Shown piece by piece: positions 3,875 through 50,122 of a stretch of 50,122 nucleotides of DNA. The translations under genes were made by a program, and so were the position numbers. Location of the stretch: assembly GCA_031431735.1 (NCBI GenBank), contig JANPDZ010000466.1, positions 1 to 50,122 on the forward strand, written 5' to 3'. The first letter of the stretch is position 1. Every line of letters begins with the position of its first letter. The DNA is from Acidobacteriota bacterium (GTDB lineage: Bacteria > Acidobacteriota > Blastocatellia > Pyrinomonadales > Pyrinomonadaceae). The notes under the pieces were generated by a model. It did no database searches and was not told the origin of the DNA. It worked only from the letters and a program-made list of their open reading frames with translations.

Positions 3875-3883
3875 AAAAAAGCT

Positions 3884-4156: not shown

Positions 4157-4618
4157 ATGGCGACTTATTTTTGCGATACAAGTGCGTTGGCAAAACGCTA
4201 TGTGACCGAAACGGGTTTGGCTTGGCTGATGGCAACGATTGACCCGAAAGTCGGCAATTATGTTTTTATCGCTCGAATTACGTTTGTCGAAGTCTTTTCA
4301 GCAATTTCGCGCAAAGAACGCGGCGGACATATTTCCGCAATCGATGCGGCAACTGCAAAAAAGCAATTTGAAACAGATTATTCAGGCGAGTTTGTCAGCG
4401 TCGAGATTACGGAAACATTAATTCTCGAAGCCGCAAGACTTGCCGAAAAACACGCTTTGCGCGGCTATGATGCCGTTCAACTGGCGGCGACGTTGGAAAC
4501 TCAAGCCAAACGTGCAGTCCGAAAATTGCCGCCTTTAACTTTGCTTTCCGCCGACACAGATTTAAACGCGGCGGCGGTCAGCGAAGGTTTGACGGTTGAT
4601 AATCCGAATAATCATTAG
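4157..4618 (+). CDS. PIN-domain ribonuclease toxin (VapC-like)
   Basis: N-terminal YFCDTSALAKRY (first acidic residue), later GYDAVQLA and SADTDL motifs typical of PIN domains; coupled to upstream small ORF. Confidence 0.7.
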   Translation: MATYFCDTSALAKRYVTETGLAWLMATIDPKVGNYVFIARITFVEVFSAISRKERGGHISAIDAATAKKQFETDYSGEFVSVEITETLILEAARLAEKHALRGYDAVQLAATLETQAKRAVRKLPPLTLLSADTDLNAAAVSEGLTVDNPNNH

Positions 4619-5295: not shown

Positions 5296-5634
5296 TTATT
5301 TGAAATCTTCTTCAACTTCTGCGATCAGATATTTTAGTTCTTCATCAGTGATGTTTTCGGTTTCGGCTTTGTCGTAAATTGAGAGCAGATAAACGGTTTG
5401 GGCTATTTGATAAAAATAGGAAATAACACGCGCACCGCCGCTTTTGCCTTTGTTTTTGCTTGAGATTGCGAGGCGGATTTTATAGACGTTTGCGCCGAGC
5501 GATGTTCCGAGCGCGGCGTTTTCTTTTAGTTGGTCAACGAGGTTTTGTAAATCGTTCGGGAAAGATTTGTAGCGTTTGGCGAAACGTTTCGCTTGTTTTT
5601 GAAAAGTTTGGCGGACAATGATTTTATTGCTCAT
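5296..5634 (-). CDS. RelE/ParE-superfamily toxin (DUF1044-like)
   Basis: KGKSGGARVISYFYQ..VYLLSIYDKAETENITDEEL is the characteristic core of this toxin group; overlaps upstream small ORF by 11 nt. Confidence 0.65.
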   Translation of the reverse strand: MSNKIIVRQTFQKQAKRFAKRYKSFPNDLQNLVDQLKENAALGTSLGANVYKIRLAISSKNKGKSGGARVISYFYQIAQTVYLLSIYDKAETENITDEELKYLIAEVEEDFK

Positions 5635-5860
5635 CTTTTAATTTGGCAATGAAATCATCGGCGGAAAGATTGCGGTTTGCGTCCGCATTTTCATTTTGCA
5701 AATCTTTTTTGAGATTGGTCAGCGATTTTTTGAAATCGGTTAGAATGTCTGCTTTATTCACACGCTTTTTAAGCCGCAACAGTTCGTTCTGCAACTTTTC
5801 CCAATATTGGATTGGCACGATAACTGCGTCTTGGTCTTTTAGATATTGAATGTTTTGCAT
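5624..5860 (-). CDS. putative antitoxin of the RelE-like toxin
   Basis: 78-aa ORF from internal ATG (MQNIQYLKDQDAVIVPIQYWEKLQNEL), overlapping toxin start; position and size only. Confidence 0.5.
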   Translation of the reverse strand: MQNIQYLKDQDAVIVPIQYWEKLQNELLRLKKRVNKADILTDFKKSLTNLKKDLQNENADANRNLSADDFIAKLKDEQ

Positions 5861-5885
5861 AATTAATTTCGGCTGAATATTCACA

Positions 5886-6245
5886 AAATTTGATAGAATT
5901 ATAACAAAAATATGCAATTTTCACACGATAAAAATTTGAATTTGAGTAATGTTTCAGTTAATTCGAAACCACTACCAGAGGTAGTGGCTTACTCTTAGTA
6001 AAAAGTTTTAGCGACTGGAGCGCAAGCGTCCCCGCTTGCCATGAGCGTTGCTTCGACGCGAAAAAGCTTTGTTAAATTCGACGATAATAGGCTCGCGAAC
6101 GTCATTTTCGCGCTTTCGCGCTCAGGCAAGCGGGGACGCTTGCGCTCCAGTCATAACTTTTTACTGAGGCATTACTAATTTGATTTCGGAAAAAGTCGAA
6201 GGACGCGAGCGTTTGACTTTTAATGATGGAATATCACTTTCGCAA
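5886..6245 (+). pseudogene. relic copy 2 of a divergent mqn-type gene 5' end, split by a MITE
   Basis: ATG 5912 MQFSHDKNLNL, then element 5946-6176, then ISEKVEGRERLTFNDGISL; joined reading aligns with [30 protein letters not shown] of the gene at 7966. Confidence 0.75.
5946..6176. mobile_element. MITE-like nested palindrome inserted in relic copy 2
   Basis: Termini GTAATGTTTCAGTTAA / AACTTTTTACTGAGGCATTAC; inner 28-bp arms GACTGGAGCGCAAGCGTCCCCGCTTGCC / GGCAAGCGGGGACGCTTGCGCTCCAGTC; flanked by AATTTGA (5939-5945 and 6177-6183); removal restores the relic reading frame. Confidence 0.65.
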
Positions 6246-7243: not shown

Positions 7244-7459
7244 ATGCGGTATATGATTGTTATTGAAGAGGGCGAAACGAGTTTTGGTGCGTATGTGCCG
7301 GATTTACCGGGTTGCATCGCGGTTGGCGAGTCGGAAACAGAAGTCAAACAATTAATTCAGGAAGCAATCGAATTTCATCTTGAAGATTTGCACGAATCGG
7401 GCGCGGAAATTCCGAAGCCTTTGTCGAAAAGCGAATATGTCGAAGTTTTAGCCGTGTGA
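7244..7459 (+). CDS. hicB: HicB-family antitoxin
   Basis: MRYMIVIEEGETSFGAYVPDLPGCIAVGESETEV..AIEFHLE matches the HicB N-terminal domain; immediately downstream of hicA. Confidence 0.75.
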   Translation: MRYMIVIEEGETSFGAYVPDLPGCIAVGESETEVKQLIQEAIEFHLEDLHESGAEIPKPLSKSEYVEVLAV

Positions 7460-21095: not shown

Positions 21096-21279
21096 TTTAG
21101 AAACAAATTTACAAGTTTTCCCAGTTTTTGCGAGAAAAAAAACTTGGTAATCAGGCAAAGAAGGATTACAATAAATCAATTTCGGAAAAAAAGAAGCAGA
21201 CGGACTTGAGCTAATTTCACACTAATTTGCGAGTAGTATAGTTGGAGAGAAATTTTCAGTTCGGGAATTTTTATTATTG

Positions 21280-24129: not shown

Positions 24130-24148
24130 GTGAATTATTAGATACTTT

Positions 24149-24688
24149 TCATAATTTCCGATACATAATCAGTGCGTTTGTCAGACCGTTTTCGGCGTGC
24201 TGAAATGCTTCGGGAATTTCGCCGATAATCTCAAAACCTAAGCTCTGCCATAATCGAACGGCGAACGTGTTCGATTTGACGACGAAATTAAACTGCATCG
24301 CACGATAGCCTAATTCCTTGGCTTCACGAAGCGAGAATTCCGCCATTGTCCGCCCGATGCCTTTGCCCATTGATTCCGCCGCAACCATATAACCCGCGTT
24401 GGCAATGTGCGAACCCAGATCGGGCTGATTGTCTTTGAGAAAAAATGTGCCGATGATTTTGGCGTTTGAGTTGATTGAGTTGGGCAAATTTAACCCGCCC
24501 GCTACCGCAGACGGTTCTGACAAAACGGCAACGTAAGTTTTTTTATCTTTAGAAAACCAGAAATCAAGCATTTTTTCTTGCGAGGTATTCGGATAAAAAG
24601 GGTATGTGTCGCCGCCAGCAATGACGGATTTGATAATTCCCCAGACCTGCGGTTTGTCGTCTTCGGTTGCTTTTCTAATTTCGAGCAT
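24149..24688 (-). CDS. GNAT-family N-acetyltransferase
   Basis: Acetyl-CoA loop MGKGIGRTM and GNAT C-terminal fold; contains extra LSEPSAVAGGLNLPNSINSN segment encoded by a repeat element. Confidence 0.75.
   Translation of the reverse strand: MLEIRKATEDDKPQVWGIIKSVIAGGDTYPFYPNTSQEKMLDFWFSKDKKTYVAVLSEPSAVAGGLNLPNSINSNAKIIGTFFLKDNQPDLGSHIANAGYMVAAESMGKGIGRTMAEFSLREAKELGYRAMQFNFVVKSNTFAVRLWQSLGFEIIGEIPEAFQHAENGLTNALIMYRKL
24490..24526. repeat. half copy of the palindromic element found in the helicase gene, in frame inside the GNAT CDS
   Basis: Reverse complement GTTTTGTCAGAACCGTCTGCGGTAGCGGGCGGGTTAA matches 41678-41714 GTTTTGTCAGAACCGCCTGCGGTAGCGGGTGGTTTAA. Confidence 0.7.
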
Positions 24689-25118
24689 CTCTTTGTAAAG
24701 TAAATTTCCAAATCATACGGTTTTGTGCTTCGTCGAAAATGTATTTTCCTTCCGCGACGCGCCAAAAACCTAAAAACTGCCACGCGCTCGTCTTTAGTTT
24801 GTTAAAAAGCGGCACAGCGCGACCTGATTCTATAGCATTAAACAACGATTTATTGAATGAATCAAGCCGTTGATCGCCGCGCCGACCCGCCCCCGTGTAA
24901 AAAATCGTTTCCGCCGTATCGCCGTGAAAATCGGGATAACACGGGTTGATTTTGCCGAAATCCGTCAGCAGCGAGATTAACATCCCTTTTCGCTGATAGA
25001 TACCGTTGCGCACTTTGTGAATTTCGGCGACCTCGTTCCACGAAAAATTTTTGCCGATGTCGTCGGTTGTAAAAAAACTACCGGTTATAGTTGTATTTTG
25101 TTCGTTTATACTTGACAC
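24675..25118 (-). CDS. hypothetical protein, possible SRA/YDG-like (PUA-fold) modified-base reader domain
   Basis: GIYQRKGMLISLL..DTAETIFYTGAGRRGDQRLDSFNKSL..AVPLF resembles the Y-T-G-x-G..(D)Q..N..L core of SRA/SBD domains; overlaps GNAT start by 14 nt; family call weak. Confidence 0.35.
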   Translation of the reverse strand: MSSINEQNTTITGSFFTTDDIGKNFSWNEVAEIHKVRNGIYQRKGMLISLLTDFGKINPCYPDFHGDTAETIFYTGAGRRGDQRLDSFNKSLFNAIESGRAVPLFNKLKTSAWQFLGFWRVAEGKYIFDEAQNRMIWKFTLQRDARN

Positions 25119-25338
25119 AAGTTTTCTCTATGATTAAACTCTTTTTACTTTTCATTTTATCTATGGAAATACTACCAGTTCTTTTCCTGCATTTCAGAAA
25201 AAATTGACCCCTTGTTTTTTCGTAAAAAGCGTCGAAAGTTTTTTTTTGCTCTGGTATTTTGTAATTTTATTCATAACGGCTTGATATTTTATCGGCAAAT
25301 ACAAATTTAAATTTAAGTCCCAAGGAGATTAAAAGAGC

Positions 25339-27453
25339 GTGAAAAGATTTTTAAGTATTTTGGCAGTTTTCGGTTTAGTGATTTTTGTTTTTGGTCTGAT
25401 TACCAAAAAAGCAGATGCGAACAAACCTGTTTTTAATGCAGGAACACAAGACGAACTCGACAACGCCAAGCAAATCAGTTTAGGCATCTTGCGTGGCCGT
25501 GCCGCACAGCGTGCGATCGGAAATGTTGACGAATTTCAGATTCAAAAAGTTGAAATTGACAGTTTGAAAATGGCGCATACGCGTGTTCGTCAGACAGTCG
25601 GAGGCGTTCCCGTCTGGGAAGGCGAAGCCATCGTTCACTTGAACACAGACGGTTCGCTGTCAACCGTGACCGACGATCTCAAAGAGATGATCGCCGTCAA
25701 CACGGAACCGAATTTATCGCAAAAAGATGCCATTAATTTGGTCGTTGACGGCTATCGCGGCGGAGCGAAATTGTCCGAAGACCCAACGGCGGATCTATGG
25801 ATTTATCGCGGCGAAACCCGCGACCATCTCGTCTATCGCGTCACGACGCCGCGGATTGACGGCTCCGACGCAACATCGGTTCCCGTAACTTTTATTGACG
25901 CGCAAACCGGCGAAAAAGTGATGGAATACGATAATCTGCAAACCGGCAGCGGTTCATCGCTTTACAGCGGAACAGTGACGATTTCGACAAACGGTTCGAG
26001 CCCGACTTTTTATATGGAAGACACCACCCGGCGGATGGGAACTTTCAATATGAACAGCACCGGCAACGAAACGACCGGTACGGGCGGCACGCAATCGCGC
26101 TACACGGACACGGACGACGTTTGGAACACGACGATCCAACGCGCCGGAGTTGACGCGCATTACGGCGCGGCGCAAACCTTCGATTATTTTCAGGCGGTTC
26201 ACGGACGCAACGGCATTGACGGAAACTACGGACCGGGCACGACGACTTCGGCGGTCGGCGCGATTCCGCTGGTTGTTTCGCGTGTTCACTTCGGCAGCAG
26301 CGGCCGCTACAACAACGCTTTCTGGTTCAATAATCAGATGAGCTACGGCGACGGCGACGGCACGACCTTTTCGCCGCTAACGACGATTGACATTTGCGGT
26401 CACGAAATGTCGCACGGCGTCACCGAACGCACCGCGAATTTGACCTATTCAAATGAATCGGGCGCATTGAACGAAGCGACTTCGGATATTTTCGGCGCGA
26501 TGGTCGAACTCCGAGCCGACGGCGGTGTGGTTTCGGCTGATACGTGGAAAATCGGTGAAGATTCTTATACGCCGGGAACTGCCGGCGACGCGCTTCGTCT
26601 GATGAACAATCCGAATGCGGTCGGCGATCCCGATCACTATAGCCTTCGCTACACCGGAACAGCTGACAGCGGCGGCGTTCACACCAATTCGAGCATTGCC
26701 AATCACGCCTTCTATTTGATGGCAGCGGGCGGCACGAATCGTGTCAGCGGCGTGGCAGTAACCGGCATCGGAACAAGCCCAATGGAAAGAATCTGGTATC
26801 GCGCTTTGACCGTCTATATGACTTCGGGCACGAATTTTTCCGCTGCAAGAACGGCGACTTTGAATGCCGCGACCGATCTTTTCGGCGGAACAAGCGCGCA
26901 ATACACGACCGTTGCGACCGGCTGGTGCGCGGTTGGCGTTGGCGCGTGTCCGGGCGGAACACCGACCCCAACACCAACTCCGACGGGAACCAATCGGCTC
27001 GTCAACGGCGGATTTGAAACCAGTGTTTCGCCCTGGGTTATGTCGGGAACAGGCGCGTTATATATCGCAAACGGCAGTTCACCGCACGGCGGAACAGGCT
27101 ACATCTATTTCGGCACGGCAAACAATCGCACGGGACAAAACTATCAAACGGTTTCAATCCCGACGACCGCAACCGGAACATTGACCTTCTGGCTCAATGT
27201 CACTTCGGCTGAAACGACAACAACGACGCAGTATGATAAATTGTTCGTCGAAGTCCGCAACACGGCGGGAACTCTGCTGGCAACTCCGGCAACTTACAGC
27301 AATTTGAATAAGACGGCATCTTCAACTACTTATTCGCAAAAATCGCTGAATTTGGCGGCTTACAAAGGTCAGACAGTTCGCGTTCAGTTCCGCACAACAA
27401 CGGATAGTTCGTTAATCACGACTTTCCGCGTTGATGATGCGGATCTGCGATAA
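25339..27453 (+). CDS. secreted M4 (thermolysin-like) zinc metalloprotease with C-terminal carbohydrate-binding-like domain
   Basis: GTG start after AAGGAG; signal peptide; HEMSHG (HExxH), GALNEATSDIFG (third ligand Glu), VHTNSSIANHAFY; TPTPTPTPTG linker then ~150-aa beta domain. Confidence 0.85.
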   Translation: MKRFLSILAVFGLVIFVFGLITKKADANKPVFNAGTQDELDNAKQISLGILRGRAAQRAIGNVDEFQIQKVEIDSLKMAHTRVRQTVGGVPVWEGEAIVHLNTDGSLSTVTDDLKEMIAVNTEPNLSQKDAINLVVDGYRGGAKLSEDPTADLWIYRGETRDHLVYRVTTPRIDGSDATSVPVTFIDAQTGEKVMEYDNLQTGSGSSLYSGTVTISTNGSSPTFYMEDTTRRMGTFNMNSTGNETTGTGGTQSRYTDTDDVWNTTIQRAGVDAHYGAAQTFDYFQAVHGRNGIDGNYGPGTTTSAVGAIPLVVSRVHFGSSGRYNNAFWFNNQMSYGDGDGTTFSPLTTIDICGHEMSHGVTERTANLTYSNESGALNEATSDIFGAMVELRADGGVVSADTWKIGEDSYTPGTAGDALRLMNNPNAVGDPDHYSLRYTGTADSGGVHTNSSIANHAFYLMAAGGTNRVSGVAVTGIGTSPMERIWYRALTVYMTSGTNFSAARTATLNAATDLFGGTSAQYTTVATGWCAVGVGACPGGTPTPTPTPTGTNRLVNGGFETSVSPWVMSGTGALYIANGSSPHGGTGYIYFGTANNRTGQNYQTVSIPTTATGTLTFWLNVTSAETTTTTQYDKLFVEVRNTAGTLLATPATYSNLNKTASSTTYSQKSLNLAAYKGQTVRVQFRTTTDSSLITTFRVDDADLR

Positions 27454-27472
27454 ACTCCTAACTTGGAATGCA

Positions 27473-27508
27473 AAAGGGAACGATTTCGGTCGTTCCCTTT
27501 TCTTTTTT
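27473..27508 (+). terminator. rho-independent terminator of the M4 protease gene
   Basis: AAAGGGAACGA-TTTCGG-TCGTTCCCTTT (11-bp stem) followed by TCTTTTTT. Confidence 0.7.
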
Positions 27509-27706
27509 AACGTCATTAAAAAAAGTTAGGAATTCAAATTACAGATGATTAGGCGCGAGAATTCAATGGCAAGAAGTTAATGCCATTGGGCTCTCGACGC
27601 GATTCAAAACAAATAACAAGCGTCGGGCAAAAGAGAAAAGGCTGAACCGTTTACTTCACGAACGAGACAGCCGTTGCTCTTTGACCGGCTTTCTACAATA
27701 AATCGT

Positions 27707-27857
27707 TAAGCAGGTGAGCATAAGTTTCGAGGTATTTTGAAAAGTTTTGAGTCCCGGATTTATGCGGCAAACCGCCAGCGAAGCGTGGCGGTTACACGCT
27801 AAAGCGTGGACTCTGAACGAAGAGCAAAATGTCGCAAAACTTATGCTCACCTGCTTA
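27707..27857. repeat. nested palindromic element with GAGTCC core
   Basis: 21-bp perfect outer arms TAAGCAGGTGAGCATAAGTTT / AAACTTATGCTCACCTGCTTA; core 27749-27818 with CCGCCAGCGAAGCGTGGCGG and CACGCTAAAGCGTGGACTCTGAAC. Confidence 0.75.
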
Positions 27858-28057
27858 GTAATTGTTGAAGTCCCGGGGTTTTTGACGCGCCGTCCGCCTG
27901 AGTTGACGGAAAAAAGATTTAATTTTCTAAAAGGCTTGAGCTAATTCTACTCCTTTTTGCGCGTATTCTGCGGAAATAGATTTTTCAAGTTTATGAGACT
28001 TGTAAAATTTACGACCAAAGTTAAGTTATTAATGAAAATATAATGGAGAATTAATTT

Positions 28058-29464
28058 ATGCTTAAAGAAAAAATTGCCAAAGAAACCACAAAGAATAGTT
28101 TCTTAACCGGACCGGAAATAACCACAAACATATCGATTGTGAAGAGTTTGATATTTTGCATTGCATTTGTATTGTTGACATCAAATGTATTTGCGCAAAA
28201 AGAAGTGAGGACGGATTTTCCGACTCAAAAAGAAGTGAGGACGGATTTTCCGACTCAAAATGTCCCGAATGAAGGAAAAATGTCAAAAAAAATTATTCCC
28301 GATTCGTATATCATCCTTTTTAATGAAGATGATCTCCAACCATACATAAAGAAAAGCCCTGCGGGAGAAAATGACAACCGCGAAGAAAAAGCAAATGATG
28401 CCCAAAAATATGAGGAACAAATGACTGTTACTCTTAGAAAAATAGCTCAAGACAAATTGGGTATTACTTCTGAGATGATTACCGAATATTATACCACTGC
28501 AACAACCGGGATTAAGATTCAGGTCAAAAACGATCAGGCGAAACGGATACTTGAAAGATTGAAAACCGTCAAAGAAGCGGCGGCAATGGTTCAAGATTTT
28601 GAAATCACCGCTTTCGAATCTGCCGTTGTGCCGGCGACAAACTTTTTAATGTTTTTTAGACAAACGCCAAGCTGGGGCGTGAGTATTGTCGGCAGCGGTA
28701 ACTATACGGGAAATAAATGGGCATGGGTGCTTGATACAGGAATTGACACCACACATCCTGATTTGAATGTTAAGTCATCGTCACCTTTTGCAGTTTCATT
28801 TATCAGCGGACAATCATTTGTTGACGGTTTTGGTCACGGCACGCATGTCGCCGGAATCATTGCCGCCAGAAACAATCGAATCGGCACGCTTGGCGTCGCT
28901 GCCGGGGCAACTGTTGTTCCGGTCAAGGTTCTTTCCAACTCCGGTGCAGGGTCTTGGGGCGCATTACTTTCCGGTCTCAATCACGTTGCCAAATATTATC
29001 TCCCCGGAGATGTTGTCAATATGAGTTTGGGCGGTCCCGCGCCGGATTGGTTCACCGACGCATTTATTTGGTGGGACGTTAGAAAACAATCGGAAAATGC
29101 GATCAGAAATTTAGGCAATGCCGGAGTGTTCTGTGTCATTGCGGCAGGTAATGACAATCAAAATGCAAATAATGTGACGCCCGCCAGAATTAATGGAAAC
29201 AGAGTCTATACTATATCTAATATGGATTGGAATAGAAACTTATCCGGTTCTTCTAATTATGGAAACGCCCCTGTGGATTATGCGGCTCCCGGAGAGAATA
29301 TTTTATCAACGTATATGGGCGGAGGCTATGCTTATATGAGCGGAACCTCAATGGCGGCACCTTTTGTTTCAGGAATTTTATTAATAAACAACGGAGTAAT
29401 TAACACCTCCGGTGTGGTTAATACCGATAAAGATGCGACCAAAGACCCGATAGCCGTTAGATAA
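28058..29464 (+). CDS. secreted S8 (subtilisin-family) serine protease
   Basis: Catalytic triad blocks VLDTGID, HGTHVAGIIAA, SGTSMAAPFVSG; N-terminal anchor/signal; A+T-rich relative to neighbours. Confidence 0.85.
   Translation: MLKEKIAKETTKNSFLTGPEITTNISIVKSLIFCIAFVLLTSNVFAQKEVRTDFPTQKEVRTDFPTQNVPNEGKMSKKIIPDSYIILFNEDDLQPYIKKSPAGENDNREEKANDAQKYEEQMTVTLRKIAQDKLGITSEMITEYYTTATTGIKIQVKNDQAKRILERLKTVKEAAAMVQDFEITAFESAVVPATNFLMFFRQTPSWGVSIVGSGNYTGNKWAWVLDTGIDTTHPDLNVKSSSPFAVSFISGQSFVDGFGHGTHVAGIIAARNNRIGTLGVAAGATVVPVKVLSNSGAGSWGALLSGLNHVAKYYLPGDVVNMSLGGPAPDWFTDAFIWWDVRKQSENAIRNLGNAGVFCVIAAGNDNQNANNVTPARINGNRVYTISNMDWNRNLSGSSNYGNAPVDYAAPGENILSTYMGGGYAYMSGTSMAAPFVSGILLINNGVINTSGVVNTDKDATKDPIAVR
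28199..28258 (+). repeat. perfect 30-bp tandem duplication inside the S8 gene
   Basis: AAAGAAGTGAGGACGGATTTTCCGACTCAA twice, encoding KEVRTDFPTQ KEVRTDFPTQ just after the signal peptide. Confidence 0.9.
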
Positions 29465-29500
29465 CCTGTTTTCTGCAATACTGAGCGGCATAAGCAGATA

Positions 29501-29567
29501 ATAATGCAGAAACACGCACGAAGTAAGGGCGCATTTCACACTTACTTCGTGCGTGTTTCTGCATTAT
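29501..29567 (+). terminator. 27-bp stem hairpin downstream of the S8 gene
   Basis: ATAATGCAGAAACACGCACGAAGTAAG - 13-nt loop - CTTACTTCGTGCGTGTTTCTGCATTAT; no clear U-tract, so terminator function is uncertain. Confidence 0.4.
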
Positions 29568-29647
29568 GTTACAAACATATGCCGACCTGCTTAGAAATAG
29601 CCGTCGGTTGGAAAACAAGAAATATCTGCACACGCGCCCAATGGCAT

Positions 29648-29813
29648 TAAGTAGAGCAATTTTTAAGTTTTCTAGGATTTGCGGATTTTTGTTTTCGTTC
29701 AGAGTCCACGCTTTAGCGTGTTCCCGCCAGCGAAGCGCGGCGGAAATTCAAACCTATTGTTTGGACTCTGAACAAAGACAAAACACCAGATAATTTTAAA
29801 ATTGCTCTACTTA
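29648..29813. repeat. nested palindromic element with GAGTCC core, inverted relative to 27707-27857
   Basis: Outer arms TAAGTAGAGCAATTTTTAA / TTTTAAAATTGCTCTACTTA; GTTCAGAGTCCACGCTTTAGCGTG (29697-29720) is the exact reverse complement of 27795-27818. Confidence 0.75.
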
Positions 29814-30074
29814 GCTATCAGCTAATTTTTCCCTTTTTTATCCTCACTTAGCCTAAGACTCCTGCCACAACCGTTTCCGCGCAGGCGGGAGATGTCAGGC
29901 GTTTTGCAAAACACATCCAAAAAAACTAAAATACAAACAAGTCGTTAATAGACTTCTACGCACGGGCAGGGCGGAAGTAACGCTTGTTAGATATGAACAG
30001 TCATTAGACGTTCAGAGCAAGAATCTCCAATCCATAAATCTTTGATTTTGGTTGGAGAGTGTCAATGATTAGAT

Positions 30075-32078
30075 TTAAGGCACGAAAGCATTCGGCACGG
30101 GTCTGTCGCCGGTCGTCCCGAAAGTTACAATCTGCGTTCCGGCAGTCGTTCGCTGAATAAACCATGTTGAGTTTGACGGTCGGAAAACCGTCAAATCAAA
30201 CTTGCCGTCGCCGTCGTAATCGCCCGGCGCGGGAATATCGCCTGTCGTGCCAAATGGTGCCGAGAAGAACGAAAAATCCTCGCTTCGCAAGACAAACCAG
30301 AAGCCTGTCGAAGGACGGAAAAATGCTGCATCAGCTTTGCCGTCGCCAGTGTAATCGCCCTGCACGGGTTTGTCCGCCGAGTTTCCAAACTGAAAAGCGG
30401 TCGTTCCGCCGGTTGCGCTGCGCCGAATCCACCATTCACCAACCGCCGGACGGAAAATGGCAATATCCGTTTTGCCGTCGCCATCAAAATCCGCCACAAC
30501 GGGAACATCATTCGACGCGCCAAATTGAACGATTGCCGTGCCCGCGCCGCCTGATTGGCTGATAAACCATGTCGCTGTTGACGGACGGAAAACAGCCGGA
30601 TCGGTTTTACCGTCGCCGTCATAATCGGCAGGCGCGGGAATATCACCCAACGCACCGAACGGAAATGAGAAAAATGAACCGTCTTCGCTCCGTAAAATAA
30701 ACCAGAATCCGGTTGACGGACGGAAAATGGCGATGTCGGTTTTGCCGTCGCCGGTGAAATCGCCCGAAGCGATTTTGTCCGAGCTGTTACCAAATTGCGC
30801 CGCGACGGTTTGCCCCGAAGAACTGCGGTTGATCCACCATTCGCCGGGCGAGGGGCGAAAGATCCCAATATCTGTTTTGCCGTCGCCGTCGAAATCAAAC
30901 TGTCCCAAACCGCGCGAAGTCAGACAAGTTCCGTTTGCCGTCACGTAACTGCTCACTTCCGACCGCGAAGATGTACAAAACGTGAGCTGCGTACTGCCAT
31001 TCAATTGGGCATTCATCAAAGTGTTCGCACAATTCAGCGCGGTGTCCGAATGGGTCGCGCCAAGATTATGTCCGATTTCGTGCGAAGTAACTAAAAAATT
31101 CGCTTCTTCCCATCCCCAAGTGACATCAACTCTGCCGCTTAAACCGTAAGCAAAATCAGGATTATTGCATACTACACCCAAAAATCCGTAACCTTGCGAC
31201 CGCACATTCGACTTGTAGGTAAAAAGATGCGCTACATCGCGCCGATATTGCGCCGCCGGAAAATTGGTGTTCCAATAGGCTTGAAATGAGCGAACGAGTG
31301 CATCTGCATTAGCTCCGTTATATGAATCAGCCGTTGACCAGGTATGTTGGAAAACGACGCTCACCGTCAAGTTTAGTTCGTTTTCATAAAGACCTTCGAC
31401 CATATTCAAAATGCTCAGAATCTTGGCGTTGGCACCCGCCGCGTTGGTCGTCGTATTGACAAAATCAAAATCGGCTTCGGTTGCGATCTCAATCGCTTTT
31501 TGCCCTGCAAGGGATTGCACATTGCCCGACAAAACCATCTTTTGGCCGTCCTCGATTTCGCCAGTCAAATCTTGCGGACAACTGAAACTTTTATCTCTGA
31601 TGACATCTTCCGCCCGATAAACAACAAATTCACCGGCAGCTGCCAAATCCGAATACTTTTTGGCGGATTCGATAAAATATCTTTCTGCGCCTGCTGAAAA
31701 ATAACCCTCGATTCCCGAATCATCCATCGTCAGACGAACTTCGGACTCCGTTTCGCCGACAATCTTTCCTTTGTAGGTCGTGACCGGCACTTTTTCAAGA
31801 CGGCGCGTGCCGTTTGCCGTCACATCTTCCGCAATGTAGCGTGATGAGCGTAAATCGTGCGGTGTCAACGACAATTCAAAGGTTCTGTTCGGTGTCGAAA
31901 AAGAAATTATCTGGCTCGCCTTTGCTTGTCTAATCGCTTCACGGGTGTTTAAACGCACCACATTGACGCTCTTAAATGAGTTTCCAAGATCATTTTTTAA
32001 CGCGTCGCTCTCCTGTGCCGAAGCCGATAAAAATGTAGCTAGCGTAAGTAGAATGCCAAATAAAATACTTTTCATCAT
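30075..32078 (-). CDS. secreted metzincin (reprolysin/M12B-like) zinc protease with C-terminal FG-GAP/VCBS repeats
   Basis: Signal peptide; HEIGHNLGATH (HExxHxxGxxH); seven or so DFDGDGKTD..IFRP repeats at the C-terminus. Confidence 0.8.
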   Translation of the reverse strand: MMKSILFGILLTLATFLSASAQESDALKNDLGNSFKSVNVVRLNTREAIRQAKASQIISFSTPNRTFELSLTPHDLRSSRYIAEDVTANGTRRLEKVPVTTYKGKIVGETESEVRLTMDDSGIEGYFSAGAERYFIESAKKYSDLAAAGEFVVYRAEDVIRDKSFSCPQDLTGEIEDGQKMVLSGNVQSLAGQKAIEIATEADFDFVNTTTNAAGANAKILSILNMVEGLYENELNLTVSVVFQHTWSTADSYNGANADALVRSFQAYWNTNFPAAQYRRDVAHLFTYKSNVRSQGYGFLGVVCNNPDFAYGLSGRVDVTWGWEEANFLVTSHEIGHNLGATHSDTALNCANTLMNAQLNGSTQLTFCTSSRSEVSSYVTANGTCLTSRGLGQFDFDGDGKTDIGIFRPSPGEWWINRSSSGQTVAAQFGNSSDKIASGDFTGDGKTDIAIFRPSTGFWFILRSEDGSFFSFPFGALGDIPAPADYDGDGKTDPAVFRPSTATWFISQSGGAGTAIVQFGASNDVPVVADFDGDGKTDIAIFRPAVGEWWIRRSATGGTTAFQFGNSADKPVQGDYTGDGKADAAFFRPSTGFWFVLRSEDFSFFSAPFGTTGDIPAPGDYDGDGKFDLTVFRPSNSTWFIQRTTAGTQIVTFGTTGDRPVPNAFVP

Positions 32079-44043: not shown

Positions 44044-45285
44044 TCATCTGCCCGCTCGTGCGTTTGCGAGCCGCAGCGACTGTTTGCGGACGGCATCGGA
44101 AACATTGCGATTTTTCGACATTGCGAGTAAATCGCGAAGTTGCAGACGCGTCAGAATACTGATTACATTGCCCATCGGCGTTCGCGGGTTCGATGCCAAT
44201 TTGAGCATGATCTGATAATTTCGCGCCCACGCCCGGTTGATCGCGATCATCCGCAAAACATCTTCGGGAACCGATTTCATCGAAGCGATTTTTTCCACTT
44301 CCTGTTCGGTAATGCGGTTATTCTGGATAACTGCCTGCGCGACGATGCGGTTTGGATCGCGAATCAGAATATTTCGTGCTTCGCGGTCGCCTTTCATCGC
44401 CAATTTTACGCGGTCTTTCATACCCATTTTCAGAATGCGATTGATCATCGAAATCCGTTCGCCGGAAATCGAATCTTCCTCGAATTTGAGTTCGCCCAAG
44501 ATCTTGTCAACAATGGCCGCACGTTCTTCGGGCGATTCTTCGTAGAGTTCTTCGATAAATTCGAGCGACAGCCAACTGTCATCAACCTCGTCGTCGGGAA
44601 CTTCGATATGTTGGGCAAGCAGAATCGCGTCGTCAAAACTGATTTCAAAACCTTTCGGGTCATCGGAGATCGCCGCCTTTTCGATAAATTCAGCCGCCGC
44701 TTCTTTACCTTGGGCGCGAAGCTCGCTGGCGATTTGCTGGGCGCCGCGTTCTTTTTCAAAAAACTCGCGTTTGACTTCCTGGGCGCGGCGTTCGGCTTCT
44801 GATGTCCGATAGGTATTGGCGATGATCGCATCAATGATCGCCGGGGCTTTGATCAAAAGCTGTTGATTAAAGGAGATCAATTCGAGAAGGTCGCCACTGG
44901 TCGTTTTTCGGGCAAGTTTGACGATCGATTGTTCGGGCGTTCGCGTATTTTGAACGATTGCTTCGCAAATCTCGTTTGGCAGATTTTCGTAATCGGAGAA
45001 AAAATCCAGTACACGCGGCGCAACTTCGTGTGATTGAACAACATCTTTGAGAGATGTTGCGATCTGCGAGGAAATAGTCTGACGCGCATTTTCGGCAAGG
45101 TTCGCATCCGGGTTATCGGCCAATGCAACCAAGATCTCAAGTAAATCGTTTTGCGCCAAAGGCAGCAGTCCACGCGCGGCAGCCATCTTGACAGGCTGCG
45201 GCGCAGTTCCCCCAATGATGGATTTGACGACCGGGTTTGTCGAATTTACTTCAAAATTCATAAAATTGGCTGGATATTTCGGCAA
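44044..45285 (-). CDS. hypothetical helical-repeat (HEAT/ARM-like) protein
   Basis: 413-aa ORF, acidic, repeated leucine-rich helical segments; no catalytic motif recognised. Confidence 0.5.
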   Translation of the reverse strand: MPKYPANFMNFEVNSTNPVVKSIIGGTAPQPVKMAAARGLLPLAQNDLLEILVALADNPDANLAENARQTISSQIATSLKDVVQSHEVAPRVLDFFSDYENLPNEICEAIVQNTRTPEQSIVKLARKTTSGDLLELISFNQQLLIKAPAIIDAIIANTYRTSEAERRAQEVKREFFEKERGAQQIASELRAQGKEAAAEFIEKAAISDDPKGFEISFDDAILLAQHIEVPDDEVDDSWLSLEFIEELYEESPEERAAIVDKILGELKFEEDSISGERISMINRILKMGMKDRVKLAMKGDREARNILIRDPNRIVAQAVIQNNRITEQEVEKIASMKSVPEDVLRMIAINRAWARNYQIMLKLASNPRTPMGNVISILTRLQLRDLLAMSKNRNVSDAVRKQSLRLANARAGR

Positions 45286-45763: not shown

Positions 45764-48232
45764 ATGGTAAAAGACGATCTAAAAAATCTTATTACGGAAA
45801 GAAGTGCTCGAATCGGTGTCATCGGACTCGGTTATGTCGGTTTGCCGCTGATCATCGAATTTGCACTGAAAGGCTTTCCAACCGTCGGTTTTGAAGTTGA
45901 CGCGAAAAAAGTTGACGTGCTCAACACAGGCGTTTCGCACATCGTTGACGTTTCTTCGGAAAACGTTCAAAAAGCGATCGAAGCCGGAAAATTTACGGCA
46001 ACAACCGATTCTTCGCAGCTGAAAGATTGCGACGTGATCATTATCTGCGTTCCGACACCGCTCAGAAAAACGAAAGACCCCGATATGTCATATATTTTGG
46101 CGGCGGGCGAACAGATCAAAAAATATGCGCGGCGCGGGCAACTTGTCATTTTAGAATCTACAACATATCCCGGCACGACCGACGAAATTCTCCAACCGAT
46201 GATCGAAGAAGCTGGCTTAAAACTCGACGAAGATTTTCTGCTCGCGTTTTCGCCCGAACGCGTTGATCCGGGCAATCCGCAATATCAAACGCACAATATT
46301 ACAAAGGTCGTCGGCGGTGTCGGCAAAGATTCGACCGAGGTTTCCGCGCTTCTTTATGCGCAAATTGTCGAAAATGTTCATCCCGTTTCGTCGGCCCGCG
46401 TCGCGGAAGCCGCCAAACTCTGGGAAAACACATTTCGCGCCATCAATATCGGAATGGCAAATGAAATGGCCAAGGTCTGCAACGCGCTCGGCATTGACAG
46501 CTGGGAAGTGGTGCGCGCCGCCGCGACCAAACCGTTCGGCTTTATGCCGTTCTATCCCGGTCCCGGAATCGGTGGGCATTGTTTATCGGGCAAAGAAACT
46601 GTTATCGTGCGCGACGAAAACGGTAAAAAAATCGAAAATCTGGCGGAACTTTTTACAAATGAAGGCACGAAAAATCGTGTTCGCCGATTTGAAGTTCACG
46701 GAAGCGATGTGATTTACAAACCTAACCTTGAGGCTTTGTCAATCAATATGGAAACGAACAAAGCGGAATGGAAGCCCGTTGAGTATCTTTTCCGCCGCCA
46801 AACCGATGTTGATTTGGTAAAAGTTACAACCAGCGACAATCGCACTATAACCGTTACCGATTTGCATCCGATGCTTGTGGCTGACGAAAACGGCAAACTA
46901 ACGGAAGTTTTTGCGAAAGATTTGAAAGCGGGAAATCGTTTGCCGATTCATCACGCTGAGGAAAATATCGAAAGTGGAAATATAAAGATTGATTTACTTA
47001 AATTCGTTTCTGCTTCATCGGCTGAAAAGATTCGTGTTTGTCTGCGCGAAGGAAGTTTTTATAATTACCATGAAGTTTTGAAAAAACATATCTCGGCGGA
47101 AAAGGTTTGGGAACTTTCCAAAATTAACTATTTAAGTTTGAAAGACTTTTTGAAAGCCGAAAAGGATTTGAATGTCTCGCGTGAAAACCTGATTTTGCGA
47201 ATCGGACGCGGAAATTCGGCTAGTTCTTTTCCGGCGATAGTTGAAATTACGTCGAATGTTGCCCGTTTGATCGGTTATTATTTGGCGGAAGGCTGTGCGA
47301 CGACCGAAAAGGGCAATGAGCGAATTCGGTTTAGCTTTCATTGCAAAGAAAACGAATTTATTGAAGATGTTTGTAGTATTTTGAAGTCTGATTTTGGCGT
47401 AGAAACATCACTTATTCATTCAAATGTTGACCAAGTTACTCATATTCGCGTTGCTTCGGCGTTATTCGGTTGGTTTTTGGTTGAAGTCTTAAAATGCGGA
47501 AAGCGTTCGACTGAAATGCAGATCCCTGACCGTTTATTAAATCTTTCCACTTCGCATAAAACCGAACTTTTGAAAGGTCTTTTGCGCGGCGACGGCGATG
47601 TTTATGTTAAGTCGGGAATGAATTCTTACGAGAAAAACGGCAAAATTTATGAGCATCGAAATACAACTGCCGAAGTCGGATATTTTTCGAGCAGTCCGAA
47701 ACTTTTCCAGCAGGTAGTTTATCTTTTACAGGAGCAAGGTTTCACGCCGACCTGCAAACGCACCAAACCGCACTTGCAAATGAAAGGACGCGAACAACTT
47801 GAAAGAATGTCGAACTGGTTAGGCGAAAAAGGAGCAAAACTTCAAACTTATTTTGCCAATAATTTGCGAAAAGTTAAGAGCAAAACTTTCAAATCATTCG
47901 GTGGAATTATGACCGTTCCCGTCAAAGCCATCGAGATTATCAAAACAACTAAACCTTTTGAAGTTTTCTCGATTGAGGTTGAAGGAAATCATACTTTTGC
48001 GACATCTTATGGCGTTTTTGTTCATAATTGCATCCCTTTGGACCCGCATTATCTTTCGTGGAAGGCGCGGCAGCACGGATTTGATTCGCAATTTATCACT
48101 TTGGCGGAGCAAATCAATTCGGGAATGCCGAAATATGTTGCCGGACTCGTGCGCGATGCTTTGAACGATAACGAAAAATCGGTCAAGGGCGCGAAGATCT
48201 TGATTTTGGGCGTGGCGTATAAAAGATATTGA
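45764..48232 (+). CDS. nucleotide-sugar dehydrogenase (WbpA/WecC-like UDP-N-acetyl-hexosamine 6-dehydrogenase) interrupted by an intein; frame ends prematurely at 48232
   Basis: N-extein IGVIGLGYVGLP Rossmann motif ..PFYPGPGIGGH; C-extein CIPLDPHYLSWKARQHGF..ILILGVAYK; ATG 45764 preferred over TTG 45740. Confidence 0.8.
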   Translation: MVKDDLKNLITERSARIGVIGLGYVGLPLIIEFALKGFPTVGFEVDAKKVDVLNTGVSHIVDVSSENVQKAIEAGKFTATTDSSQLKDCDVIIICVPTPLRKTKDPDMSYILAAGEQIKKYARRGQLVILESTTYPGTTDEILQPMIEEAGLKLDEDFLLAFSPERVDPGNPQYQTHNITKVVGGVGKDSTEVSALLYAQIVENVHPVSSARVAEAAKLWENTFRAINIGMANEMAKVCNALGIDSWEVVRAAATKPFGFMPFYPGPGIGGHCLSGKETVIVRDENGKKIENLAELFTNEGTKNRVRRFEVHGSDVIYKPNLEALSINMETNKAEWKPVEYLFRRQTDVDLVKVTTSDNRTITVTDLHPMLVADENGKLTEVFAKDLKAGNRLPIHHAEENIESGNIKIDLLKFVSASSAEKIRVCLREGSFYNYHEVLKKHISAEKVWELSKINYLSLKDFLKAEKDLNVSRENLILRIGRGNSASSFPAIVEITSNVARLIGYYLAEGCATTEKGNERIRFSFHCKENEFIEDVCSILKSDFGVETSLIHSNVDQVTHIRVASALFGWFLVEVLKCGKRSTEMQIPDRLLNLSTSHKTELLKGLLRGDGDVYVKSGMNSYEKNGKIYEHRNTTAEVGYFSSSPKLFQQVVYLLQEQGFTPTCKRTKPHLQMKGREQLERMSNWLGEKGAKLQTYFANNLRKVKSKTFKSFGGIMTVPVKAIEIIKTTKPFEVFSIEVEGNHTFATSYGVFVHNCIPLDPHYLSWKARQHGFDSQFITLAEQINSGMPKYVAGLVRDALNDNEKSVKGAKILILGVAYKRY
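46580..48028 (+). other. 483-aa class-1 intein with LAGLIDADG homing-endonuclease domain
   Basis: Starts CLSGKETVIV (Cys1), block B TVTDLHPM, LAGLIDADG motifs ARLIGYYLAEGCA and LLKGLLRGDGDVY, ends GVFVHN followed by +1 Cys (CIPLDP); more A+T-rich than exteins. Confidence 0.85.
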
Positions 48233-48548
48233 CGATATGCGCGAATCGCCGGCACTGTCGGTGATTGACCTGCTTCGTTCACGCGGCGCCGAAGTTAGCT
48301 ATCACGATGATTTTGTCGCGGAAGTGACGTTTGACCATTCTTACACGATCGGTGCCGGCGACCCGCTTTACAATCAGGAATTGACCGACGAGCTGCTTGC
48401 GTCGTCAGATTGCGTCGTGATCTGCACCGAACACTCAAACGTTGATTACAAACGCGTCTGTGCACTTTCGAAAGTCATCGTTGACACGCGCAACGCTTTG
48501 AAAGAAGATTTGCGCGAAGGAAGCAAGGCGAAAATAGTTCGTTTGTAG
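48225..48548 (+). CDS. C-terminal domain of the same dehydrogenase, in the +1 frame
   Basis: DIDDMRESPALSVIDLLRSRGAEVSYHDDFV continues the family motif AYK-x3-DDMRESP; frame switch within TATAAAAGAT (48218-48227). Confidence 0.65.
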   Translation, partial: DIDDMRESPALSVIDLLRSRGAEVSYHDDFVAEVTFDHSYTIGAGDPLYNQELTDELLASSDCVVICTEHSNVDYKRVCALSKVIVDTRNALKEDLREGSKAKIVRL

Positions 48549-48565
48549 ATTTAGTGAATTCAAAT

Positions 48566-48765
48566 CATTACTGAGCGGTCTAAAAATTGCAATGGCTTTG
48601 AAAACTAAGAATATCTGCCCACGCGCACACACTAAACAAACGAAAAAAAGCATTTTTGCCAAATCTTTTTTCTTGTTTTCGTGCGTGCGCGTGTGTGCGC
48701 GTGGGCAAAAATCTTAAAATATTTCATACTTTTCAAGTAAGCAATAACTATGCCGCTCAGTAATG
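48566..48765. repeat. nested palindrome, TGCCCACG type
   Basis: Outer CATTACTGAGCGG / CCGCTCAGTAATG; inner TCTGCCCACGCGCACACAC / GTGTGTGCGCGTGGGCAAA. Confidence 0.65.
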
Positions 48766-48772
48766 AGAAGAA

Positions 48773-48894
48773 CTAGTATCTGCTTCCGTAGAAGAGTGGT
48801 AACTTATTTCCTCTAATGAAAATCTCTTTGAACATCAAACGCTACAGAGTTGTTGTTCAGAGAGTTGGTATTTACTTACGGAAGCAGATACTAG
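48773..48894. mobile_element. 122-bp element with perfect 18-bp terminal inverted repeats
   Basis: CTAGTATCTGCTTCCGTA (48773-48790) and TACGGAAGCAGATACTAG (48877-48894) enclosing 86 nt; lies ~240 nt upstream of tnpB. Confidence 0.5.
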
Positions 48895-49046
48895 AAGTTC
48901 AATTCACCTGTGAACTGAAATAATTTATCAAGATTTAGCGCAAGACTCCGTCCATAATCCGCTTCGGATTTGGGGGGAGATGTAGCGCGTTCCACAGCAA
49001 CCGCGCTTTTAAGCGGTTGTTTCTTTGACGCAAGTAGTTTTCGAGA

Positions 49047-49075
49047 TTGAAGGAATTGAGAAACTTTGGTATAAT
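49047..49075 (+). promoter_or_regulatory. sigma70-like promoter upstream of tnpB
   Basis: TTGAAG - 17 nt - TATAAT with TG at the extended -10 position (TGGTATAAT). Confidence 0.45.
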
Positions 49076-49136
49076 CAAAGACGATGCACTGAAAAGCGAT
49101 AAACTTCGCTGTGCTTCTGACACAATCAAAAGGTGG

Positions 49137-50122
49137 TTGATTAGGGCTAAAGCAATTATCACAAAATCTTTCAAGTTTCGCATCTCGAAACCCTCTAAAA
49201 TAGTTCAAGAACGCCTTGAACAAACTCTCTACCATTGCCGACAACTCTATAACGGTGCGCTTCAAGAAAGAATCGGCGCGTATAAAATCAATCACATTTC
49301 GCTCAACTATTACGATCAAGCGAATCAGCTTTCTGACATTAGACAAGACAATCCCGAATACAAAGACATTCACAGCCAAGTTTTGCAGAATGTTTTGAAA
49401 CGATTGGATAAAGCATTTGACGAATGTTTTCGTCGCATCAAAGCAAAACAAACTGCGGGTTTCCCGCGCTTCAAAGGTCAAAACCGATACGACAGCTTCA
49501 CTTTTCCGCAAAGTGGTTTTTCGCTGACGGGAAACAAGTTGACACTTTCCAAAATCGGCACGGCCAAACTTAAATTGTCGCGGCAAATTATCGGCAAAGT
49601 AAAAACGCTTACACTCAAGAATGAGTGCGGAAAGTGGTTTGCAATCTTCACTGTTGAAACGAGTATTAAGCCATTGCCGAAAACAGGTGAATCGGTCGGA
49701 ATGGACGCGGGAATAAGTAGCTTTATGACCTTGAGCGATGGCACGGAAATTGATAACTGGAAATACTACGAATCTACTCAAAAGCGATTGCGAATTGCAC
49801 AACGCCGCGTAGCACGTCGAAAGAAAGGTTCTCACCGTCGCCGTCAAGCAGTCCTTCTCCTTCGCAAGATTCACCAAAAGATAAAAAATCAACGAGCCGA
49901 TTTTCAACATAAAGTTTCTACTTATTTGGTCAAAACTTATGATTTGATAGCAATCGAAAAACTTTCTATTCTCGGTATGTCGCGTGGCATACTTTCTAAA
50001 CAAATACACGATGCCAGTTGGCGTTCTTTTTTTGGAATGTTGGACTACAAAGCTGAAAACGCTGGTCGCCAACTGATAAAAGTAAATCCAAACTATACGA
50101 GTCAAGACTGTTCCGCCTGTGG
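49137..50122 (+). CDS. tnpB: IS200/IS605-family TnpB (RNA-guided endonuclease), 3' end outside window
   Basis: Hand translation of + strand, open from 49038 to window end: KSFKFRISKPS..LYNGALQERI..GFPRFKGQNRYDSFTF..VGMDAGISSF..YDLIAIEKLS..NPNYTSQDCSACG; no in-frame ATG, TTG at 49137 proposed; absent from ORF track because it lacks ATG and a stop. Confidence 0.8.
   Translation, partial: MIRAKAIITKSFKFRISKPSKIVQERLEQTLYHCRQLYNGALQERIGAYKINHISLNYYDQANQLSDIRQDNPEYKDIHSQVLQNVLKRLDKAFDECFRRIKAKQTAGFPRFKGQNRYDSFTFPQSGFSLTGNKLTLSKIGTAKLKLSRQIIGKVKTLTLKNECGKWFAIFTVETSIKPLPKTGESVGMDAGISSFMTLSDGTEIDNWKYYESTQKRLRIAQRRVARRKKGSHRRRQAVLLLRKIHQKIKNQRADFQHKVSTYLVKTYDLIAIEKLSILGMSRGILSKQIHDASWRSFFGMLDYKAENAGRQLIKVNPNYTSQDCSAC

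Follow-up and report, generated by a model that had tools for sequence, protein, structure and literature searches.

The window analyzed here comprises 50,122 nt of the forward strand of contig JANPDZ010000466.1, from the assembly GCA_031431735.1 of an Acidobacteriota bacterium. Its plus strand carries a gene for a nucleotide-sugar dehydrogenase that is interrupted by an intein and, downstream of the intein, by a frameshift. The corresponding open reading frame (ORF) starts with an ATG at 45764, as in its homologs (MVKDELKNLI), with an in-frame TTG also present at 45740, and ends at 48232, which gives a product of 822 aa as assembled. In the following, L-numbers designate genome loci or alleles and P-numbers designate protein matches. 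Three of these alleles recur below: L080, which is empty, L083 (P0020), which carries a mini-intein, and L084 (P0215), which is an intact full-size allele.

The intein and its host dehydrogenase

When the window was compared by blastn with the empty allele L080, whose junction sequence is CCCGGAATTGGGGGACAT/TGCATCCCTTTGGACCCGCAT, similarity broke at 46581 and resumed at 48027, which indicates a precise insertion. The N-extein was 93% identical to this allele at the nucleotide level up to the break. The junctions of the window ORF read ..PFYPGPGIGGH/CLSGKETVIV ... YGVFVHN/CIPLDPHYLSWKA (slashes mark splice junctions here and below). Inside the insert, we found matches to the Pfam families Intein_splicing (PF14890, E = 1.6e-15) and LAGLIDADG_3 (PF14528, E = 1.1e-12, in two stretches), as well as to the NCBIfam models intein_Nterm (TIGR01445, 42 bits for a cut-off of 24.5) and intein_Cterm (TIGR01443, 23.7 bits for a cut-off of 15.6). 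An initial annotation, made from the letters of the window, had placed a full-size LAGLIDADG intein of 483 codons at 46580-48028 and had proposed a profile search as a check; our coordinates agree with this placement, and the Hint-domain profiles were matched by the search. The chance probability of 483 codons without a stop, at the composition of the insert, is ~2e-15.

Invariant residues were called from an alignment of 12 full-size intein members of the family (A1). All the splicing blocks named in the initial annotation, that is Cys1, the TxxH of TVTDLHPM, and the terminal His-Asn, were found and are invariant in this alignment. In the C-terminal splicing part, the residues V462, S464, E466, V467, F473, H482, and N483 do not vary. 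Both LAGLIDADG motifs that had been pointed out are likewise present, in stretches matched by PF14528, and their acidic residues, E237 and D338, are invariant. The insert combines the features of a class-1 intein (a block A Cys, a block B TxxH, His-Asn followed by Cys+1, the Hint fold, and a host that is restored upon removal) with those of a double-motif LAGLIDADG endonuclease (two helices each ending in an acidic residue and an alpha-beta-beta-alpha-beta-beta-alpha core fold). Its mechanism shows no departure from that of a canonical class-1 intein with a LAGLIDADG homing endonuclease, and autocatalytic splicing of the window intein is predicted from these conserved residues.

The AlphaFold2 (AF2) model of the intein had a mean predicted local distance difference test score (pLDDT) of 91. 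A Foldseek search with this model returned PI-PkoII (2cw7; E = 6e-27, TMq 0.68), PI-PfuI, the Tli and Pho VMA inteins, and PI-SceI as the best folds of the PDB. The model also superposed on mini-inteins, for example the RadA intein, with a root-mean-square deviation of 1.8-2.2 A over ~125 columns, and on full inteins. For the endonuclease core, Foldseek matches were obtained to I-Tsp061I, I-DmoI, I-OnuI, and I-SceI in addition to intein endonucleases. At the sequence level, phmmer aligned the window intein with PI-PkoII at E = 3e-11. The NCBIfam alignment also pairs the window intein with the intein of the tetraether lipid synthase Tes.

The host protein, spliced in silico and with its A run repaired (see next section), is 445 residues long. 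It matched TIGR03026 from end to end (positions 2-413 of 413; 444 bits for a cut-off of 189.8), and it shares 98% identity with P0075 and P0076, two intein-free proteins of 445 aa. Removal of the insert recreates the family motif GGHCIP.DP, as had been proposed. The best matches throughout were metagenome-assembled genomes (MAGs) of Pyrinomonadaceae and Blastocatellia, and this group of Acidobacteriota is accordingly the most likely origin of the contig. The closest solved structures of the host are the uridine diphosphate (UDP)-ManNAcA dehydrogenase of P. horikoshii (4r16, GIGVGGHC) and Cap5O of S. aureus (3ojl, GPGVGGHC). In the alignment, the window Cys+1 pairs with the GPGVGGHC Cys of Cap5O (chain residue 269, native Cys258). 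This Cys258 is reportedly the catalytic nucleophile of Cap5O, which would agree with the earlier view that the insertion lies at the active-site Cys of a UDP-sugar dehydrogenase and that Cys+1 doubles as the catalytic Cys.

The spliced host scored below the equivalog cut-offs of NF040825 (293 for 750), NF008286 (256 for 459), and TviB (238 for 592). These UDP-N-acetylmannosamine (UDP-ManNAc) dehydrogenase and TviB models (293, 256, and 238 bits) nevertheless outscored the UDP-glucose 6-dehydrogenase models (187, 150, and 58 bits), and the window carries GGHCIPLDP instead of the GGSCFPKD of the UDP-glucose 6-dehydrogenase type (COG1004). The model scores and this motif place the host in a paralogous branch of the dehydrogenases that bear the udp intein family, described below. 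Judged from these matches, the host is WecC/Cap5O-like and probably a UDP-N-acetyl-hexosamine dehydrogenase. The next gene after the dehydrogenase in syntenic relatives belongs to the UDP-GlcNAc 2-epimerase family (Epimerase_2 in L080 and L084), which suggests UDP-ManNAc as the substrate.

Table 1 Parts of the dehydrogenase gene, its intein, and the adjoining element, in window coordinates.
Feature	Position	Strand	Support or remark
N-extein, nucleotide-sugar dehydrogenase (NAD-binding domain and first part of central domain), 272 codons, ends ..GPGIGGH	45764..46579	+	PF03721 E = 1e-46, PF00984 E = 5e-29
Intein, class 1, 483 codons (1449 nt)	46580..48028	+	PF14890, PF14528, TIGR01445, TIGR01443
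N-terminal splicing (Hint) part, residues 1-123	46580..46948	+	Cys1, T93, and H96 invariant (A1)
Block A Cys1 (TGT)	46580..46582	+	Invariant in 12/12 family members
Block B TxxH (TVTDLHPM, T93-D-L-H96)	T93 46856..46858, H96 46865..46867	+	Both invariant
Endonuclease region, ~residues 124-436 (helical linker or DNA-binding region and double-LAGLIDADG core)	46949..47887	+	PF14528
LAGLIDADG motif 1, LIGYYLAEGCA (E237)	47267..47299	+	E237 invariant
LAGLIDADG motif 2, LLKGLLRGDGDVY (D338)	47567..47605	+	D338 invariant
C-terminal splicing part, ~residues 437-483 (block F EVFSIEVEGNHTF, block G VHN)	47888..48028	+	TIGR01443
Block G His482-Asn483 (CAT AAT)	48023..48028	+	Both invariant
Cys+1 (TGC), predicted C-extein nucleophile and dehydrogenase Cys of GGHCIPxDP	48029..48031	+	TIGR03026 match of the spliced host; alignment with Cap5O 3ojl and with 4r16
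C-extein, 65 codons in the correct frame, the rest shifted	48029..48232	+	ORF reading
Frameshift site, A4 run, A6 in relatives (TAT AAA AAA GAT = YKKD), 2-nt contraction	48221..48224	+	Comparison with relatives
Remaining C-extein, UDP-binding domain (DIDDMRESPA...KIVRL stop), +1 frame	48225..48548	+	PF03720 E = 4e-15
TnpB/IS605 OrfB gene in the place of the epimerase gene, running off the window end	within 48549..50122	+	PF01385, PF07282 (Cas12f1-like TNB), PF12323 (helix-turn-helix)

The frameshift in the host gene

A frameshift in the host gene had been overlooked by the initial annotation. The ORF ends at a premature stop codon (48230-48232), 67 codons past the intein (..GVAYK RY stop). At the corresponding position the relatives read GVAYKKDIDDMRESPA in a single frame, encoded at the DNA level by TAT/TAC AAA AAA GAT or with AAG AAG, and the site is A6 or AAGAAG in L001-L005, L008, L029, L080, and L084. 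The last of these is the intact 928-residue allele P0215/L084 from a JGI metagenome, which belongs to the same 90% cluster, has an intein 89% identical to that of the window, and carries A6. Over the ~3.5 kb that are syntenic with L080, the contraction of the A run is the sole coding indel. The out-of-frame part of the C-extein is still 92.8% identical to L080 at the nucleotide level up to 48549, and the ratio of nonsynonymous to synonymous divergence (dN/dS) of the exteins against L080 is 0.06. The contraction reflects either an inactivation that took place very recently or a mistake in the assembly.

If the frameshift is real, the dehydrogenase would be freshly dead in a decaying locus and the intein would be a passenger, with no functional host protein to rescue. 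We regard this as a serious possibility that falls somewhat short of an even chance. It would account for the early stop codon and the displacement of the UDP-binding domain into another frame, and it would fit the replacement of the usual downstream epimerase gene by a TnpB element right after the dehydrogenase stop codon. Moreover, the ORFs elsewhere on the contig are long and intact, and only one coding indel was found in the syntenic region, so the assembly is not generally error-ridden. However, there is no second lesion in the gene, the exteins are otherwise under strong purifying selection, and nucleotide identity to L080 persists beyond the shift. In addition, 2-nt homopolymer miscounts are a common artefact of assembly or consensus, and the near-identical allele P0215 is intact. 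A programmed +1 frameshift at the A4 run, where tRNA-Lys would slip from AAA to the overlapping AAA before AGA and yield the full-length enzyme minus one Lys, is highly improbable, since AGA is an ordinary codon here (12.8% of Arg codons) and the relatives are all in a single frame with A6, and no stimulatory element was seen, even though the sequence TAT AAA AGA TAT TGA permits perfect re-pairing of tRNA-Lys in +1 and the stop lies only two codons on.

The gene should be annotated as one intein-containing, frameshifted nucleotide-sugar dehydrogenase and not as two proteins. The frameshift also bears on the cloning that the initial annotation had proposed for a splicing assay: this copy needs a repair of its A run, or the intact allele P0215 should be used instead.

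Allele states and probable homing

Four allele states were found at this site in the clade: empty, full-size, half-deleted (314-326 residues in P0016-P0018, without the first LAGLIDADG motif), and mini (176-224 residues). The empty state dominates the best host orthologs, 115 of 120 of which are 445-aa intein-free proteins, and the nearest host alleles (98%, 98%, and 95% identity) are all intein-free. The mini-intein of L083/P0020 is 181 aa long and keeps residues 1-123 of the window intein and approximately the last 45 residues, with 93-94% nucleotide identity. What is deleted in the mini-intein alleles, and half-deleted in P0016-P0018, is the endonuclease region. This region is under purifying selection (dN/dS ~0.13) and is thus being maintained: its dN/dS against close relatives (0.12-0.17) is similar to that of the exteins (0.06-0.13).

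The G+C content of the intein is 40.2%, compared with 50.1% for the N-extein, 48-52% for the C-extein, and 45.5% for the contig, and it falls at the 6.8th percentile of equal-sized windows of the contig. The intein is thus more A+T-rich than its exteins, as had been noted from the start. This had been taken as a sign of recent horizontal arrival, a reading that we reject: in 65 of 69 loci of the family the intein has a lower G+C than the exteins (mean difference of -5.1 points), and intein G+C tracks host G+C over the 69 loci (r = 0.95). A+T-richness is a family-wide property and is therefore uninformative on recency.

Evidence other than base composition suggests horizontal acquisition by homing among close relatives. 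Synonymous divergence (dS) was compared among the window, L083, and L080 in the distal exteins, the junction-proximal extein (-120..+240 nt), and the intein. Between the window and the mini-intein allele L083, dS was 0.48 (confidence interval 0.37-0.63) in the distal exteins, 0.23 in the junction-proximal extein, and 0.22 in the intein, with a bootstrap probability of 0.0025 that the intein dS equals or exceeds the distal dS. Between the window and the empty allele L080, the order was reversed, with 0.26 in the distal exteins and 0.34 in the junction-proximal extein. The control comparison of L080 with L083 gave 0.46 and 0.45, respectively, with no local dip. Informative sites gave a similar picture: in the distal exteins, the window sided with L080 at 78 sites and with L083 at 26, while between -97 and +239 the sites favored L083 in 16 of 26 cases (post-hoc Fisher p = 0.001). 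Mismatch density against the empty allele alone had also been tried as a test of co-conversion and was dropped as uninformative; the signal came from the three-way informative sites and the regional dS. These values are suggestive of a mosaic window allele, with distal exteins nearest to the empty L080 and with an intein and junction-adjacent extein nearest to the mini-intein allele L083, which is the pattern that homing with co-conversion of the flanking extein would leave. A tblastn search of the intein gave no match in plasmids and, in phages, only a match of 26% coverage to the endonuclease part of a ribonucleotide reductase (RNR) intein of Tenacibaculum phages, and there is hence no evidence of a plasmid or phage vector.

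We consider it very probable that the insert is a bifunctional class-1 intein of the udp family, that it came by homing from a close relative into an L080-like allele, and that the A6 contraction of the host is a recent mutation or an assembly error. Several points weigh against this reading. A permutation over all possible intervals gave p~0.09 for the mosaic, which was drawn from three reference alleles with a proximal bin picked after seeing the data. Position 4 of block F is a Ser, which is invariant in the family, and not the usual Asp. Splicing and DNA cleavage are predictions from conserved residues and selection, the host has no equivalog-level assignment of its substrate, and its gene as assembled cannot yield a full-length enzyme. 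Lastly, the dS of the intein is close to that of the exteins against L084 (0.54 and 0.65) and L001-L005 (~0.8 each), which would also fit a long co-residence with occasional precise loss.

This last point leads to the possibility that the intein was vertically inherited from an ancestor of the Pyrinomonadaceae clade, that the empty close relatives lost it precisely, and that no recent homing took place. The relationships of the inteins, ((window, L083), L084), also mirror those of the exteins. We nevertheless find vertical descent unlikely: the three nearest host alleles and nearly all the best orthologs are empty, the intein dS against L083 is half of that of the distal exteins, the junction-proximal extein switches its nearest relative, and a precise deletion of 1449 nt would be mechanistically rare without recombination with an empty allele.

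It is less likely still that the endonuclease is inactive and that the element, en route to a mini-intein, persists only through the need to splice. Half-deleted and mini alleles are indeed common at the site in the clade, and the 43 protein matches (of 74) whose gene calls span both junctions comprise 27 mini, 3 partial, and 13 full inteins. However, the dN/dS of the endonuclease region is low, the two catalytic acidic residues are in place and do not vary within the family, and the 483 codons are free of stops. For homing by an active endonuclease, which we prefer, purifying selection on this region and the co-conversion-like mosaic give indirect support, and site-specific cleavage of the intein-free allele is predicted.

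In the mechanism that we propose, the precursor would be inactive, as its GGH/CIP motif is split by the intein. Cys1 would undergo an N-S acyl shift, Cys+1, later the catalytic Cys, would attack the thioester, and Asn483 would cyclize, releasing the ligated 445-residue enzyme and a free 483-residue endonuclease. The latter would cut intein-free alleles at a site of ~30-40 bp spanning ..GGAATTGGGGGACAT/TGCATCCCTTTGGACCC.., and repair would copy the intein in. For this lineage, the most likely origin of the intein is a close relative, with such homing, or gene conversion, carrying it into an L080-like empty allele.

Because a single thiol serves the dehydrogenase in catalysis and the intein as +1 nucleophile, splicing might act as a redox- or thiol-sensitive switch gating the UDP-N-acetyl-hexosaminuronic acid precursor of a surface polysaccharide; separately, the allele set might represent a still-running natural homing cycle in uncultured soil Acidobacteriota. 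We offer these two ideas as long shots. If the first were true, the intein would be a retained regulatory element and not a pure parasite. The allele set of the second consists of empty, full, half-deleted, and mini alleles together with a mosaic allele bearing a possible co-conversion tract. The window copy itself matters little beyond its correct annotation. The Pyrinomonadaceae alleles (empty, full, endonuclease-truncated, and mini, with up to 94% nucleotide identity in the splicing parts) would be handy for studying the homing cycle, and the natural 181-residue mini version offers a route to a compact Cys1/Cys+1 splicing domain.

Gene neighborhood and relation to known inteins

The window shares with L080 the order DUF2227, a gene for an unknown 405-aa protein, and the dehydrogenase. 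L084 keeps the second of these genes and the dehydrogenase, with a different gene further upstream. This protein of 405-413 aa, without a Pfam match (44044-45285, minus strand in the window), is conserved in the window as in L080 and L084, and its gene lies divergently upstream of the dehydrogenase gene. The match to the syntenic loci stops one base past the stop codon of the dehydrogenase, and no TnpA was seen beside the TnpB gene within 48549-50122 of the window. Between this stop codon and TnpB lie a long imperfect hairpin and an inverted repeat (48611-48712 and 48773-48894). The hairpin has 22-nt arms that are 91% complementary, nested with 28-nt arms, and the inverted repeat is a perfect one of 18 nt, with 86 nt in between; they might represent transposon ends or terminators. 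Downstream of the dehydrogenase in L082, a 59-nt piece (48712-48769) is found again in inverted orientation.

Elsewhere in the window, a RelE-family toxin gene (PF06296) and an overlapping upstream partner of 97 aa form a toxin-antitoxin-like pair (5296-5917, minus strand), and a HicB-like antitoxin (PF15919) is encoded at 7244-7459 on the plus strand. Genes for proteases and beta-propeller proteins, which are probably secreted, are clustered at 21277-32078; they encode a 950-aa PD40/FG-GAP protein, an M4 thermolysin-like peptidase, an S8 subtilase, and an M12B reprolysin-like peptidase with FG-GAP repeats. Scans of the whole window for Rfam families at the gathering threshold and for tRNAs gave no matches.

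To place the intein among its relatives, it was used alone as the query of a protein search, which gave 74 matches, nearly all of them UDP-sugar dehydrogenases, from Acidobacteriota, the cyanobacterium Oxynema aestuarii AP17, Chloroflexi, and one Thermoplasmatota archaeon. In all 43 matches with both junctions, the intein lies at GG[HS]/C...HN/C[IVF]P. When species-representative genomes were scanned, 79 best loci were obtained, of which 69 carried an intact intein of 473-493 residues at exactly GGH/C...HN/CIP, and only these 69 checked loci are claimed here. They come from Acidobacteriota, Omnitrophota, Planctomycetota, Chloroflexota, Cyanobacteria (the isolate Oscillatoria sp. HE19RPO), Gemmatimonadota, Eisenbacteria, an actinomycete MAG, and Woesearchaeota. 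We rejected the assignment of all 510 tblastn-positive stretches to the udp allele, as one of the search patterns was a generic LAGLIDADG motif and the profile search showed close relatives of the intein in other hosts, such as PurL-like proteins. Searched against 1.84 billion cluster representatives, the family profile found 315 proteins at E<=1e-30. The top 150 included 145 newly listed representatives, at least 61 of which have the junction motifs; others are related inteins in different hosts.

The PurL-like hosts (P0248, P0257, P0260, P0263, and others, ~1,180-1,260 aa) carry the motifs ..SEHCSYKSS.. and ..GIADYGN/C...HN/C[IV]GVPT, with inteins that reach a profile E value of 1e-108. The intein lineage is thus common to unrelated host genes. 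Two further copies are irregular. L027 (CAWDDA010000024.1, a 402-kb contig; match at 3001-4480) has the same intein at the same site with its N- and C-junctions in different frames, which reflects either decay of the intein and its host gene or an error in the long-read consensus. P0004 (JGI, 830 aa) has a full intein, and its C-extein turns into unrelated sequence right after ..HYLSWKA, which suggests that the contig is chimeric or rearranged at that position.

Inteins of UDP-glucose dehydrogenases are known. InBase holds such 'UDP GD' inteins, for example from Methanocaldococcus jannaschii, and 10 of them were reported in Euryarchaeota (Novikova et al. 2016, PMC4760082). The 'udp' intein was recorded by Soucy et al. 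2014 (PMC4071816) for Halobacteria, methanococci, and two bacteria, Dictyoglomus thermophilum (H-6-12) and a Fervidibacteria genome. Our literature search found no paper linking inteins with nucleotide sugar dehydrogenase or intein with 'UDP GD', and a Campylobacter phage paper that names both search subjects was irrelevant. The initial annotation had expected a bacterial allele at this site to be unusual. This expectation did not hold, given the bacteria already listed by Soucy et al. and the intact loci in many bacterial phyla; the annotation had itself named a wide spread of the allele as what would remove the novelty, and the same intein at this site is indeed already widespread. The inteins of the udp site are far more widespread in bacteria than the two bacterial and otherwise archaeal examples of the literature suggest.

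Compared with the structurally characterized inteins PI-PkoII (2cw7), PI-PfuI (1dq3), Tli/Pho VMA (7qss, 7qst), and PI-SceI (1vde), the window intein has the same fold of splicing domain and LAGLIDADG core, but sequence identity in the structural alignments is 12-15%, and these inteins have other hosts (DNA polymerase, RNR, and VMA ATPase) and other target sites. The archaeal 'udp' allele is closer in position: Halorubrum distributum (P0196) and Thermoplasmatota read GGS/C...HN/CFPKD, a site homologous to the GGH/C..HN/CIPLDP of the window, which answers, for these members, the comparison of insertion sites that had been proposed with the initial annotation. The 'udp' inteins also consist of a Hint domain and a double LAGLIDADG endonuclease of ~480 aa in all, as in the window. 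They are homologous to the window intein at a low sequence identity (27% over 100% of its length for the Thermoplasmatota P0069, E = 4e-31), with P0069 as the link to the intein of Halorubrum distributum JCM 10247 (46% over 100% of the P0069 length). The window host belongs to the WecC/Cap5O/TviB-like branch (GGHCIPxDP) and not to the UDP-glucose 6-dehydrogenases (GGSCFPKD).

The window element is a further copy of the described udp intein family, the sole nuance being the host of the bacterial copies, which is the paralogous, WecC-like branch of the enzyme family. Inteins at the same site of the same host family are found in Oxynema aestuarii AP17, Oscillatoria sp. HE19RPO, and many Pyrinomonadaceae MAGs, and JGI products named 'UDP-N-acetyl-D-mannosaminuronate dehydrogenase/intein/homing endonuclease' represent the same intein at the same site. 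Identity to the window intein is 89% for P0215/L084, 85% for L001/P0002, 76-81% for L002-L005, and 33-41% for other phyla. Nothing qualitative separates the window intein from these bacterial copies; what sets the window copy apart is its frameshifted host gene beside a TnpB element.

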